Positions 290 to 50,400 are shown, counted from the whole stretch's first letter. The stretch: DNA of 63,081 bases, filler included, from Octopus bimaculoides (GCF_001194135.2; 6 parts of 6 records of this genome joined end to end with filler, not necessarily neighbours in it), one strand, 5' to 3'. The notes: generated from the letters alone by a model not told the origin. Made by a program: numbers and translations.

Positions 290-875
290 AAGGTTACAAT
301 ACATGTATTTAAGCGCTACTAATAGTTTCATATGTTGAGAAATACTCATCTATATTCTTCAGGTGCAAATCACATATCATAACGAAGTAAAAAAAAAAAT
401 TGAATAATAGATGAAACCCGAAAAAAACTGAGAAAGTAGCATATAGAAAACGTACAAAGTAAAAAACGGAAAACAAAAAACATAAAACGGAAAACAAAGA
501 ACACAAAAACTAAAGTGTAAAAATTAAAAAAAGTAAAGAGGGAAAAGAACTATCCTCCTTAGGCCTTAGATGATAAAGCTGGAAAGATATCAAGTCAGTC
601 AGAAATAGGCGGAATTTTCCAATTCTTCAAAAAATATTTATACATGTGCTTGCCGCCACTGAAAATTTCTGGCCTAGAGTTCAATAGAGAGTTAGGGATC
701 TTAAATCTGAACCCTTTCAGCTAAACAAATCTTACATTTATTCGATCCAATCACATAAGGCATGGATTTCTCAATTACTTTCCATTTAATCACATGTGGT
801 GTTTCATTATCTTTCAAAGACCATATGTAGCCAGCCAACTTGGTAGCTTTACTTTTATCGCTATGTCGGAAGGAG
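290..875 (-). mobile_element. PLE GIY-YIG endonuclease C-terminus plus 3' UTR/pseudo-LTR
   Basis: About 610-875 on the minus strand translates VASFRHSDKSKATKLAGYIWSLKDNETPHVIKWKVIEKSMPYVIGSNKCKICLAE, similar to the EN C-terminus at 59640-59840; a pyrimidine-rich UTR and a hammerhead motif follow. Confidence 0.8.
313..366 (-). ncRNA. Type I hammerhead ribozyme, catalytic core intact
   Basis: Minus strand: GCAC-CTGAAGA-ATAT(AGA)TGAG tattt CTCA(AC)ATAT-GAAAC-TATTA-GTA-GCGC; stems II and III pair and stem I has one mismatch. Confidence 0.8.
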
Positions 876-978
876 GCTACGTGATTGTTCTGTTTGGCTG
901 AACCGCTAAGTTATGGGTCATAAACATTCCAACACTGGTTGTCAAGTGGTGATAGGGGGACAAATACAGAGACAATGG

Positions 979-1043
979 CACACACACACACACACACACA
1001 CACACACACACACACACACACACACACACACACACACACACAC
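979..1043. repeat. (CA)n microsatellite following a SINE fragment (about 888-978)
   Basis: Pure CA run preceded by GAACCGCTAAGTTA...GGTTGTCAAG, shared with SINE copies at 5441 and 16442. Confidence 0.9.
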
Positions 1044-1779
1044 AAGGTGCAAATATTTAGGAGTGAATATTTACATAGATATTATTGTTATTATTATCCA
1101 GAGTGACATAAATAGTTGATAATAACAACAACAACAATAATATAAGTGGCTGCAGGCCTAAAATAGCATTATATAGCTACAGAATTAACATTCATATCAA
1201 TCATAAGAGCACACAAATGTGCCTGCCTCCTGGAAATAAGAGTTAAAACCCTCATTTAAACCACCAATAATAACACTGAAATTACGACAGAAAATCAATC
1301 GTAGTCGGGCGAGCGAGACGAAGAAAAGTCTTTCACATGCCTATATAGCCCAATGCTATATATTTCTAAGTACTTGGATACACGTGGACCGGTTTCTACT
1401 TTGACATGCCGTCCTACCTTCCTCAGCATGTATTACGGGATGAAACAATCTTCTCAATCCGTCACATTGAAATGTGCTGGCGTTCTGAATTGTTTTGCGC
1501 CAAAATCAGAACAGCCTCAGTGTAAAAATACCAACAAGGAGCAAATATTCAGGAGTGAATATTTATATAGATATTATTATTGTTATTTTATCGAGAGTAA
1601 TATAAATAGTTTATAATAACAACAATAGTTATATAAGTGGTTGCAGATCTAGAACAGCATTATATAGCTATAGAATTTAAATTTATAGCAATCATAGGGG
1701 CACGCAAATGTGCCTGCCCACTAGAAATAAGAGTTAAAACTTTCAATTAAACCTCCAATAATAACACTGAAAATTACGA
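1043..1779. repeat. Diverged direct repeat, copies 1043-1287 and 1535-1779 (period 492 bp)
   Basis: Both copies start CAAGG(T/A)GCAAATATT and end AATTACGA; they are colinear with many substitutions. Confidence 0.9.
1380..1433 (-). ncRNA. Minimal type I hammerhead ribozyme motif
   Basis: Minus strand: ATACATG-CTGAGGA-...GAC ggcat GTC...-GAAAC-CG-GTC-CACGTGT; palindromic ACCGGT stem III, stem I 6/7 paired, stem II poorly paired at its base. Confidence 0.7.
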
Positions 1780-46410: not shown

Positions 46411-46489
46411 TCAAAAATGTAGTCGTCCATGCATTCATTACACGAAATATATTTGTTCCATAAATGTTTGACAGCAGTACCACTCAAAA

Positions 46490-47480
46490 TCACAGCACCT
46501 CGTTCTTATTTCATCATTTCATTCTCTTTCACTATGCCCTGATGCCCATACCCAGTGACATCAGTCCGTATCAGAATAATTCGATGGTAATAATATATCT
46601 TCAAGTCAGTTGGTTTTCCTTCGCGTCAGAAATATCACTTTGCATTTTTAGACCACATTCCATTTCGTAGTTGCTGTAAATGCAATGGACTATATTCATT
46701 AACGAACTGACTTTGAACTCCACTTTGCCATACTGCTTGAGAACATCCATAAATAATAAATGTTTGATCTTTTCCTCTTTCCTTAAAACTTATATACATA
46801 CATCACTTATCTCAATAACAATATGAAAGTTATCCTGCGTAAAACAATTAGTAAGAGACGCACTGCCACCTTGAAAACTTCCCTCTCATTTTTTCACTTT
46901 CTTAGACTCTGTCCATATATCAGATCAGTCTTCTAGGTGTTCATACGTTTTCTCAAAATATTGCTGATATTCTTTACAATCTAATGCATATTTAATCATT
47001 TCAATGATCCACGAGTTTAGCTTCAAGCCATTGGTATTCCGGTAATATATGTGATTGGTAAGCTTATGTTCCTTAATTTAGAATTTTTCATCCTTCTTTT
47101 AGTTATGAGCAACTGGCATTTAGTTCGCTTGTGTTTCCATCAACAAAACTGCTCATTAGGAAAAAAAATCTGTACTTATTAATACATGTAAACAATTCAT
47201 CAATGAGTATTATGATGAGTAGCTTCTGCCATTAATCACAGTATTCCTGGATGAAACATCCTTCACAGTGACTACTGAGCATCTAAAAGTTATCTACCGG
47301 GTATCTTCTTCATTTCCGTTGATCAGGACATTAAGCCACTCTACTAGTTTCTTGTGGCAGCCTGTCAGATTCTTATTTCATTTCCTTGATCACCATCAGG
47401 TTCAGTTGCTTTCCGATTACTCATCTTCCGACTGGATAGAGACGATTAAAATCACACTTAAACTGTGTGCGTCGGATTAA
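46490..47480 (-). mobile_element. R4/Dong-type LINE RT core (highly decayed)
   Basis: KIKHLLFMDVLKQYGK...MECGLK (RT domain 5, FMDDLK-like); QLLI and SWII(E) remnants upstream. Confidence 0.65.
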
Positions 47481-50400
47481 GAGATAGTTCAGAAAACATA
47501 GTAGGTGTATTAATGAGTATACAGAGAGAAGATAGCTAAATATAGATGGGGAGAGAAAGAGAGTGATGAAGTATGTGAGATTCAGAGAGTGAAGGAGCGA
47601 CTGCTTAGAATCAGGGTGTGTCTATGTGAATGTGTGAGAAGTGTGCGTGTCTGCGAATGTGACAAAGAGTAATAGAAAGAGCCGGAGCGAGTGGCGAAGA
47701 GTGAACTATATAGATAATATATGACCCGTTTTAATCATTCTTTGAGCATGGATGTCTAAGAAGGACCACGTTTATTGCAATGCGGTACGTAATAAACCAC
47801 TTTATTCCCCATAACCTTAATATATCAGATATGAAGAGAGAAGAAATGGACGTTATTCTCTTGTCTCTCTTAGCTCTTTTCCTTTTTGTTTCTGTGTTGT
47901 TGTTTTTTTTCTGTTTTGAATTGTTTCTTTCCCTTCTTCCCTTTAAACATTTCTTTTTGATTTGAAATTACTGGGATGAAACTGAAGTGATAAAATTGAT
48001 ACAATGTCTGGGTCACTGAATAAAGCAATCTTACATTAGAGGACATATATATATTGTTTTATTTTCCTTTGCTTATCGATTAAAAGATTTCTACTGTAAC
48101 GGAGAAATCTTACTTGATAATTTTACTTGCGACAGTTTTAAATGTTCACTTTCACAATACTAAAAGAAAGCTAAAACACCCACCAACCTTGAGTGATTTT
48201 AAGATTGAAAAGGGGAGATTAAGTACGATTCTTCGATTGATCGATTTTGTCTAGGCCTTATGTTCTAGGAATTTGTCTATATCTAAACTTCTAAAAGCGA
48301 TAATATTCCACAGCTAAAACGAAAGCAAATTTCAAACTAGAATTTTTTTTGTTTTTTTAACGTGAAGCCAGCTTCATCTTAGCTGACCATAACAAAGGTA
48401 CTCCCTCGAAGGTCAGTGATATGAGACATACTATCTTGGAATTTTTCCATCTTGACGGGTTATCTTTTTATTTCTTTCTATGTCGCTCGGAAATGATAGG
48501 GGGTATCTTTTCAGCAAAATAAAATTTCGAAGAATGATTATTTGTACCACCTATCTCAGAAACTGATTTCGGCACTATGCATTTAGAACGAGAAGAGAAA
48601 CCCCTCTTTAAAATAAATACATTTATCATGTCAGGAAACAAATTCATAAGCATGTTTCTTTCTTCTTTGTTTTTGTTATTTTCAACGAAAATGTTTCTCC
48701 CTTCGATTCAAATGCACAGTATCCAGAAATTCGACTAAAAGTGTCCGCAGGGGAAGGGTTTAAAAAATGTTATCACTATTCGATTTTTTTCTCCAACAAT
48801 TCCCCCCAGCACTTCAAAACACACCGTTTAAAAGATCTGAAAAATCTCCTTCAAAACCGAGAAATTCCAACTTATGCCCTTGCCGTCTGCCGGAACTCAT
48901 CTAACTGTCCTGTATGCTTCCGTTTTAGGGAGCATATGCATATCTTATAATTATCTTATATACCTTTAAAAAAGACTGTTGGAGGAGTTAAAGTGGATAG
49001 ATGAGGCTGATATTTGTCGCAGTAAATGTGATCACATACAAATTTTGTCAAAGTTGCTTGCTGTTATGGGGTGCCTGCTGAAAAGGGTATCGTGAAATAT
49101 CTCGTTTTACTTTTACCTAAACTCAGGAGCCTTTTCAGCACCCCATCGCACATGTAAAGAACAATGATTCAGATTTTCCAAGGTAGTGTTAACGGATTAT
49201 GCTTCAAGGAAATATTTATTCACCATAAATACTCTTTGAGATCTCGAGCAGTTGGTAAAGCCAACATAGTACTATGTTAACAGTCTGAAATCTGGATTTT
49301 TACTGAACAGATGTGGTAATATCGACACGACCCCATATTATATACCTGAAATACATAACTACTGTTTAAGTCCATGAAACCACCCACATTATAATAGGCT
49401 TAGCATCCTATTACGAAAAAATTCTATTACACAGAAAATACAGATATGCGTAGCAGACACTTCACTCCATAGCAGTGAACAGCTGTCGCTTTGTCGCACA
49501 ACATTTTTATTTATATGCTGTGTCATAACTGTAGCATATTTTGAGAGTCTCTGGATCGACATTGCTTACATGAAAGAATGGTTATAGTGGGGAAATTGTA
49601 CCTTGAAAATATTTCCTGGTCTTCAATAGTACTATCGAATCCAACTGCTAATCCAAGTGAATGTTAACTTCGGTTGTTGAGAGACAAATATGGCAAAGAA
49701 TGATATCGATTGCGATAATGCAATTACAAACTAAGGAGAGGTAATCTTTATACCGTAGTGCTGTTTTAATTTGAGTAGTAATACAAACAAAAAATATTCT
49801 TCACAAGAAATAAGAAGAGTTAAAATTTCATTTATATCTACGATATTTTGCAAAGAATTCCCATTTAAGAATTCTTTGGTAATATTACTACAAATATTTA
49901 TTACATGTCGTGTTTCTGCAAAAGAAATAATTTCTTTTATATAAAAATTACGAAGTTAAGGAAAAAAATGAAGATTGTTATGTAAGACAATAGGAAATTG
50001 AAATATTAGTCACGATAAGGCTTTTAGTTTCATTGAAATTTGATAACTGACTGAAATCTGATTAGTATATCATAACATCTTAGATTTCACAGGGGAAGTT
50101 GTATTCATCATGATTTTAATACAGTACGAAGAAACGAAAATATACTTGGAATAAATCAACAATAATTTTGAAGTTAATGAATATAGGAAGTGTTGATATT
50201 TTATGCTGCAAAATATTAGTACTTATCATCTTTGAAAACATCTGCGTACAACGTATAGCCATACGATTCTAAATATAAATGTTCATATATATTAAATCGC
50301 ATTATACACAGTTGCAGAAAGGCAGGATGGACAAACAAAACCATAACAGATGTTCATAAGCGTTTAATAATCTTTAAATTAAATCATTGTTGGATATGAT

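Follow-up and report, generated by a model that had tools for sequence, protein, structure and literature searches.

Predicted hammerhead ribozymes of six Penelope-type repeat families in an octopus DNA stretch, and RNA polymerase III hallmarks in a Poseidon element

Penelope-like elements (PLEs) equipped with an endonuclease (EN+), comprising Penelope/Poseidon with PAc of Anolis, Hydra, and Neptune/Nematis, are described as encoding a reverse transcriptase (RT) followed by a C-terminal GIY-YIG domain (PMC4209133, PMC8557442, PMC11167929). In the passages of these sources that deal with the subject, the pseudo-long terminal repeats (pLTRs) carry a hammerhead ribozyme whose stem III is a short palindrome and whose A9 is followed by an additional base, and the insertions display 5′ truncation, inverted 5′ copies, and a tail, with (TA)n as the target of Hydra; all these traits recur among the octopus families presented below. 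Inverted 5′ copies, in particular, are a described PLE feature (PMC8557442, PMC4209133), and both U3-A8 cores, in the Cercyon PLEs of schistosomes, and opposite-strand hammerhead pairs in PLEs were reported in 2014 (PMC4209133). Animal retrozymes of the non-LTR type (LTR, long terminal repeat) are units of a few hundred nucleotides (nt) without an open reading frame (ORF), which contain one type I hammerhead, occur as monomers and short tandems in PLE-bearing genomes, and have been proposed to be non-autonomous PLE derivatives (PMC7229834; bioRxiv 10.64898/2026.07.22.740005). We analysed a stretch of 63,081 nt from Octopus bimaculoides (the window), in which a sequence-only reading had claimed seven hammerhead sites of several unrelated repeat types, including foldback and tRNA-headed elements as new forms.

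In our favoured explanation, to which we assign as a whole a probability of roughly 0.8, the window contains six worn predicted hammerheads derived from six unrelated PLE-type families (A to F), three coding and three ORF-less. For these families, most of the claimed ‘ecosystem’ of ribozyme retroelements is published biology: the two presumed new forms are standard PLE anatomy, and the lead worth pursuing is a Poseidon family (E) with hallmarks of RNA polymerase III (Pol III) transcription.

The window is composed of six stretches packed together from a 2.34-Gb genome, and all positions are given in window coordinates (Table 1). The sites of families A to E fall in the first stretch (contig C14), those of family F and of the seventh claim in the third (C19); all seven thus lie on two chromosome-scale contigs. 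Six of the seven sites were recovered at the right coordinates, five on the minus strand and that of family D on the plus strand, whereas the one at 47968-48011 lacks the CUGANGA...GAAA core on either strand and, in a genome search, matched only itself, for which reason it was rejected. The motifs are more frequent than in shuffled sequence, since a loose descriptor of the type I hammerhead (C3-G8) gave 6 matches, whereas block-wise dinucleotide shuffles of the window averaged 0.80, with 0/300 shuffles reaching 6. Four of these 6 matches are named sites, and the other two are located at 40124 (+) and 17251 (-). Moreover, the assertion that flanks and stems differ, so that the sites do not belong to one family, was borne out by the lack of mutual BLAST homology among the six families.

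Genome searches with each family gave 1316 (A), 179 (B), 214 (C), 1408 (D), 2143 (E), and 252 (F) first-look candidates, figures that do not represent copy numbers; 40 candidates were scored per search, and the best-scoring 22 to 30 places per family were retrieved with 1.5-kb flanks. The samples of families B and C, 25 loci each, correspond to 22 distinct places each, some having been retrieved two or three times. A strict descriptor was passed by 10/25 loci of family A, 7/25 of B, 12/25 of C, 17/30 of D, 16/25 of E, and 2/20 of F, but by 0/7 of the named window copies, which are therefore regarded as decayed; damage is present in all six window copies. No hammerhead model appeared in the Rfam scan of the window among the 150 of 226 matches listed. 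The strict descriptor with U3-A8 matched at 20838, 54492, and 39525, in AT-rich DNA that by its look suggests chance; 1/200 shuffles reached three such matches, and one of the three may be real.

In families A and F, the hammerhead lies in the 3′ end of a coding element. A GIY-YIG fragment was found directly upstream, in sense orientation, in 14/25 loci of family A and 19/20 loci of family F (the queries having been drawn from these loci), and the linkage was confirmed by the common upstream DNA. In family A, the hammerhead lies ~240 nt behind the GIY-YIG ORF, whose CxCX5C linker, seen in three loci (L137, L144, and L145), agrees with the definition of Hydra given in section 11 of PMC8557442, and copies elsewhere in the genome have (TA)n at their end. 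With its C-terminal GIY-YIG and CxCX5C, canonical hammerhead, and putative (TA)n target, family A fits an EN+ PLE of the Hydra clade. In family F, the distance is ~80 nt, and the CxxC linker preceding the C-terminal GIY-YIG points to a Neptune/Nematis-like element. Weighing against this part of our explanation are the weak stems of the family F hammerhead and the low number of loci passing the strict descriptor. The short GIY-YIG fragments were not recognised by Pfam.

Further PLE pieces lie near or resemble these families. The 3′ end of the family A copy is abutted by an RT-thumb fragment (1-247, minus strand) of a young fourth PLE family, for which 40 matches at 92-95% identity and 2889 first-look candidates were obtained, and which we take to be Neptune-like by its motifs. 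Long decayed PLE pieces at 55972-59844 (+) and 11846-12649 (+) contain a C-terminal endonuclease resembling that of family A; downstream of them, no hammerhead was found by the descriptors used.

Location inside the pLTR of an ordinary autonomous PLE, which had been considered as an alternative for all hammerheads, holds for three sites of six (A, E, and F) but, in the loci retrieved, not for B, C, and D. In these three families, a sense match to a PLE protein upstream of the hammerhead was found in 0/25 (B), 0/25 (C), and 0/30 (D) loci. The upstream DNA corresponds instead to the 3′ part of the unit itself, entered through one common junction across loci (10 aligned loci for D), which defines units of ~491 (B), ~424 (C), and ~362 nt (D), arranged in head-to-tail arrays of 1 or 2 units with no ORF. 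When one natural monomer of each was folded as a circle and compared to 40 shuffles, z scores of -5.7 (D), -2.0 (B), and -1.7 (C) were obtained.

Stem III of family B reads ACCGGT in 5/9 strings and ACCATGGT in 2/9, one palindrome being swapped for another. For family C, the stem III proposed at 3894, ACCATG(G/A)T, did not hold, as the family mostly has ATCATGAT (4/10 strings), with ACCATGAT in 1/10. As for the core claimed at 16087, it is present in family D, but in the form of U3-A8 (38/40 distinct strings), and the window copy has A3; one pair of stem I is C-G in 21/40 and U-A in 15/40 distinct core strings. From the retention of U3-A8 and the covariation of stem I in family D, together with the palindrome swap in family B, we infer that the hammerhead structure of the families is under selection. 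Families B, C, and D fit non-LTR retrozymes, having a type I hammerhead with an intact family core, of which D is the U3-A8 variant.

It had been proposed that several non-autonomous hammerhead elements exploit the PLE machinery. The proposal stands in the shape of three ORF-less families with PLE-type marks, but not in that of foldback and tRNA-headed forms. Mobilisation of families B, C, and D is likely the work of PLE enzymes, and since many of their copies end, as in family A, with a TA-rich tract, the helper is likely a Hydra or other (TA)n-targeting PLE. A few points speak against this: by BLAST, the three ORF-less families showed no homology to the A, E, or F pLTRs, no autonomous partner was found among the retrieved places, and rare ORF-linked copies may exist beyond them. 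We consider it quite improbable that the three families represent solo pLTRs of unsampled autonomous PLEs or satellites amplified at the DNA level. PLE copies are indeed strongly 5′ truncated (the ORF is reached by 6/25 hammerhead-selected E loci), and the samples are small and picked by similarity; nevertheless, where copies of B, C, and D extend upstream, they enter their own 3′ part via one junction and never coding DNA, and the copies are spread over many chromosomes as 1 or 2 units with inverted arms and tails.

Two side observations concern family C. Its window copy is located between decayed fragments of a LINE RT (2311-3763, +) and of a mariner element (HTH_48; 4144-4900, +), a decayed Tc1 transposase fragment occurring at 17262-17699 (+). 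Furthermore, a motif of ~20 nt, noticed by eye, is common to family C (3866-3886, behind the hammerhead) and family F (44673-44694, before it), and was not reported by BLAST of the family units.

The foldback of family D had been presented as an element type. With the whole foldback as query, ~12/30 loci appeared as hairpin-centred palindromes, in both sequence subfamilies and with differing switch points and arm lengths. However, this sample is biased by its query, and in a second sample of 30 loci, picked by the 3′ arm only, the arm-hairpin-arm layout occurred in 1/30, namely the window copy, and 5′ ends and inversion points were scattered. In the arm-only sample, secondary arms end at q314-316 in 8/30 loci and main arms near q372, as expected of a PLE-type inverted 5′ copy with an optional tail, here ~56 nt; judged on these ends, the foldback combines a hairpin with the inverted 5′ copy already known from PLE insertions. 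The palindromes of the foldback-query sample would agree with a fixed, MITE-like element that moves as a whole (15925-16347), a view that we regard as highly improbable and largely refuted by the arm-only sample and by the unequal switch points and arm lengths in both subfamilies. Snap-back of the hairpin as the main cause of the foldbacks was likewise discarded, being infrequent in the arm-only sample.

At q207-210 of family D (window ~16195-16200), a small hairpin marks the place where 7/30 arm-selected copies and the inverted arm of the window copy stop; this place coincides with the query start, and the stop may be a selection effect. An AT-rich repeat of 217 nt occurs at 11208-11424 and, inverted and 94% alike, at 15722-15938, directly left of the D insertion.

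Family E is classified, by motifs and similarity rather than by a tree, as an autonomous EN+ PLE of the Penelope/Poseidon clade. The family measures ~2.8 kb, and its majority sequence has a single ORF of 829 codons for a PLE-type RT with a C-terminal GIY-YIG and no Zn-finger linker. In sense order, the ORF stop is followed by 30 nt, a tRNA-like segment in which A and B boxes are found ~130 nt upstream of the start codon, (AAT)n, an ATG, the hammerhead, and the tail; the pLTR contains the hammerhead, and partial tandem and inverted 5′ copies occur, with an optional tail. Among endonuclease-selected loci, 24/30 continue through the tRNA-like part and the hammerhead. One copy, L298 (G000:C9:26718535-26721921), is near full length, with an open RT-EN frame of 793 codons running through the 5′ hammerhead, from which it follows that the family is young. 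The L298 protein matches Pfam RVT_1 (E=1e-10) and is 37% identical to protein P0075 of Anolis carolinensis, and the database protein closest to the E ORF shows 55% identity and a similar N-terminal peptide.

Thus, the tRNA-like segment, which had been read as the head of a non-autonomous form, sits between the GIY-YIG stop and the hammerhead of an autonomous Poseidon PLE, and the window copy itself holds the last 20 codons upstream of it. Similarly, the stem-II-less hammerhead claimed at 18337 has a genuine core, but the missing stem II is a private deletion of 21 nt, and the family has a full one. Short E copies do exist, with a 5′ tRNA-like head bearing A and B boxes as in a tRNA-derived short interspersed element (SINE). 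In a tree whose bootstrap did not converge, they are interleaved with ORF-bearing copies (16 tRNA-start rows, 11 label changes, both subfamilies) and therefore appear to be mostly shed by the coding element; a SINE lineage separate from it is not supported, for this reason and because the segment lies inside the coding PLE.

The A and B boxes, the start of short copies at the tRNA-like 5′ end, and a deficit of TTTT in the ORF suggest that the coding RNA of family E is transcribed by Pol III, a reading for which we see a chance close to even or just below it. Both boxes were found in 15/25 E loci, compared to 0/125 loci of the other five families. In a sample of 30 loci picked by their tail, from which 13 ends were dropped (3 at N gaps and 10 in the AAT tract), 7/14 of the 5′ ends between q340 and q486 fall in the 16-nt window q404-419 around the tRNA-like start at q411 (binomial P=3e-4), and in a second sample 4/9 ends do so at the tRNA-like start. 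Runs of T4 or longer are established to stop Pol III (PMC3141230). In the majority ORF of family E, TTTT occurs at 0/37 dicodon opportunities, against 47/236 in other retroelement ORF pieces of the same genome (Fisher P=8e-4) and 50/182 in 8 related PLE ORFs from metagenome contigs, which are too short to reveal a pLTR promoter; likewise, T4 runs amount to 0.33/kb in natural E copies and 5.1/kb in the metagenome relatives.

Several observations weigh against transcription by Pol III. The 16-nt window was picked after the data had been seen, with 13/30 ends dropped, and an RT stop at an RNA structure would look alike. Compared to LINE pieces alone (8/58), the TTTT deficit has P=0.02, and with the codon usage of family E held constant it weakens, the majority sequence giving P=0.022 and L298, a single copy, P=0.32. 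The family is T-poor (22% versus 24-27%), GGGG, though rare in all sets, also occurs at 0/26 in the majority sequence, and the A and B boxes are barely better conserved than the sequence between them (0.887 versus 0.867).

Alternatively, family E may be an ordinary PLE transcribed by RNA polymerase II (Pol II), the master copy of which acquired a piece of a SINE or tRNA in its pLTR, the 5′ cluster resulting from an RT stop at the structured insert and the lack of TTTT from an A-rich, T-poor coding strand. We hold this to be a substantial possibility, somewhat below even odds. The synonymous shuffles and the poor conservation of the boxes above their surroundings fit it well, as does the TATA-less, LINE-like internal promoter described for Drosophila Penelope (PMC2377424), and autonomous elements are expected to use Pol II, the weak processivity of Pol III limiting element length according to Kojima (PMC10886601). 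On the other hand, in natural E copies TTTT is present at 11/665 opportunities, which are non-independent, against 12-21% in the other retroelements of the genome, AAAA and CCCC are freely used, and, although the genome is AT-rich, the TTT/TTC ratio of 6/14 contrasts with 76/48 among relatives. In addition, the start cluster lies 4-10 nt before the A box, and type 2 Pol III promoters start transcription at about this spacing.

It is also conceivable, though unlikely, that Pol III makes only a short, SINE-like pLTR RNA, belonging to a separate non-autonomous tRNA-headed element, while the coding RNA is made by Pol II. Copies starting at the tRNA-like end are frequent, q551 is T in 9/16 of them versus 4/46 long ones, and their label is clustered beyond shuffles (2/500), although weakly; moreover, Sm-alpha of schistosomes is a hammerhead-bearing Pol III SINE (PMC6765202). 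Contrary to this view are the 11 changes among ORF-bearing copies that the 16 tRNA-start rows require, the absence, within the element, of any terminator downstream of the pLTR, and the extension of the TTTT deficit over the whole ORF. Three raw RNA runs (unstranded cDNA) gave, on families E and D, reads equal on both strands, with a depth tracking the 3′ gradient of the DNA, 65-74% of reads entering dissimilar flanks, and no accumulation of reads at either the tRNA-like start or the cleavage sites; these reads look like read-through of genomic copies and are uninformative on polymerase or circles. Transcription of family E from end to end by Pol III, with a captured tRNA-type pLTR promoter, a T4-purged ORF of 2.5 kb, cap-independent translation beside a hammerhead, and SINE-like copies shed through internal RT starts, is a tentative reading that falls a little short of an even chance.

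A mechanism can be outlined. The RT/EN of PLEs would move all six families, nicking AT-rich or (TA)n DNA, as suggested by PLE literature (PMC11167929). Also along the lines of that literature, reverse transcription would begin inside the RNA at one of two sites, leaving an optional tail; early RT stops and template switches would yield truncated and inverted copies, and tandem or circular templates more-than-unit copies. Hammerheads would cleave as dimers through the palindromic stem III and may give circles that serve as templates (model in PMC4209133). In family E, with about even odds, Pol III would start at the tRNA-like segment of the upstream pLTR and read 2.8 kb, meeting no terminator. 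An RT starting in the first pLTR would produce the short, SINE-like copies with the tRNA-like sequence at their 5′ end, and, given internal initiation, neither a defined 3′ end nor poly(A) would be required. Translation would not depend on a cap, possibly being aided by hammerhead cleavage, an effect reported in fungal RNA viruses (PMC13725137). As in PAc, however, the ATG would be lost upon cleavage, so the ribozyme may instead turn the RNA from a message into a template.

Table 1. Features of the window (strand + or -; a dot where no strand applies)
Feature	Position	Strand	Remarks
Family A, 3′ end of Hydra-like PLE	255..885, approximate	-	predicted GIY-YIG C-terminal fragment ~597-885, T-rich 3′ region, hammerhead
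Hammerhead A	313..366	-	core intact, A10.1-U11.1, stem III ACUA-UU-AGU, single stem I mismatch (window copy)
Family B, closed ORF-less unit ~491 nt (retrozyme), ~1.5 copies	1046..1790, approximate	-	
Hammerhead B	1380..1433	-	core intact; stem III a palindrome, ACCGGU, in the family ACCAUGGU as well; damage to stem II in window copy
Family C, closed ORF-less unit ~424 nt (retrozyme), 5′-truncated copy	3733..3978	-	
Hammerhead C	3894..3951	-	core intact, stem II long; stems III and I with one mismatch each in window copy
Family D, left ‘foldback’ arm: 3′ part of the unit as an inverted 5′ copy without tail	15925..16032, approximate	-	
Family D, forward copy of closed ORF-less unit ~362 nt	16033..16347	+	long hairpin with hammerhead at tip; TA-rich end
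Hammerhead D	16087..16138	+	family core U3-A8, compensated stem I pair; window copy A3, predicted inactive
Family E, 3′ end of autonomous Poseidon PLE	18258..18621	-	cut at end of stretch
Family E, RT-GIY-YIG ORF, last 20 codons and stop	18557..18621	-	
Family E, tRNA-like segment	18455..18527	-	A box 18520-18510, B box 18477-18467; likely internal promoter and transcription start for Pol III
Family E, (AAT)n spacer, then in-frame ATG (18391-18389) of ORF through hammerhead	18383..18450	-	
Hammerhead E	18337..18362	-	stem III ACGU; stem II lost by a 21-nt deletion private to window copy
Family F, 3′ end of Neptune/Nematis-like PLE	44480..45430, approximate	-	CxxC linker, GIY-YIG, stop near 44742, then (TAA)n
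Hammerhead-like core F	44620..44667	-	core kept across family; stems I and II weak
Rejected site	47968..48011	.	core absent, no relatives found
Further descriptor matches, chance-like	20838-20888, 54492-54535, 39525-39592, 40124-40187, 17218-17251	+, +, -, +, -	

Elsewhere in the window, a tRNA-Phe-like gene with anticodon AAA (59.7 bits) at 25129-25201 (-) is likely a pseudogene.

The catalogue extends PLE hammerheads and retrozymes to the octopus genome and, through the PLE marks of the retrozyme insertions, lends support to a hypothesis already published. Should family E be driven by Pol III, its RNA would be a natural Pol III messenger, contrary to the Pol II expectation for autonomous retrotransposons; PLE RNA synthesis, translation, and the purpose of the hammerhead could then be studied in a young family with near-intact copies, which would illustrate one way for PLEs to give rise to SINEs and retrozymes.

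As regards earlier records, Penelope has been noted in cephalopods in a source whose pertinent passages do not mention hammerheads (PMC8967140), and no cephalopod retrozyme is among the examples in the portions consulted of PMC7229834 (0 matches for octopus or cephalopod) and of bioRxiv 10.64898/2026.07.22.740005. In our literature search, no paper describing hammerhead families of octopus, or a PLE equipped with a tRNA-type promoter, was found; these families may be recorded in Repbase, in subscription journals, or in supplementary files to PMC8557442 and the 2026 preprint. Families B, C, and D share with animal retrozymes the unit size, the single hammerhead, and the array type; different from these, the octopus insertions carry PLE tails and inverted arms, and are here known from DNA, with no pLTR parent found. 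Family E resembles PAc of Anolis in that the ORF starts across the hammerhead (PMC11167929), but among EN+ PLEs, within the literature searched, it is the only one with tRNA-type A and B boxes in the pLTR and a TTTT-free ORF. In Sm-alpha and Sj-alpha of schistosomes, a Pol III-type promoter is likewise followed by a type I hammerhead (PMC6765202); these are described as non-coding and SINE-like, whereas family E has the same layout as the terminal repeat of a coding PLE. Finally, Cassandra, Helenus, and Ajax (TRIMp3) also have a small-RNA-derived Pol III promoter inside the terminal repeat (PMC10886601), but they are non-autonomous LTR elements of 311-1263 bp, whereas family E is classified as autonomous and measures ~2.8 kb.

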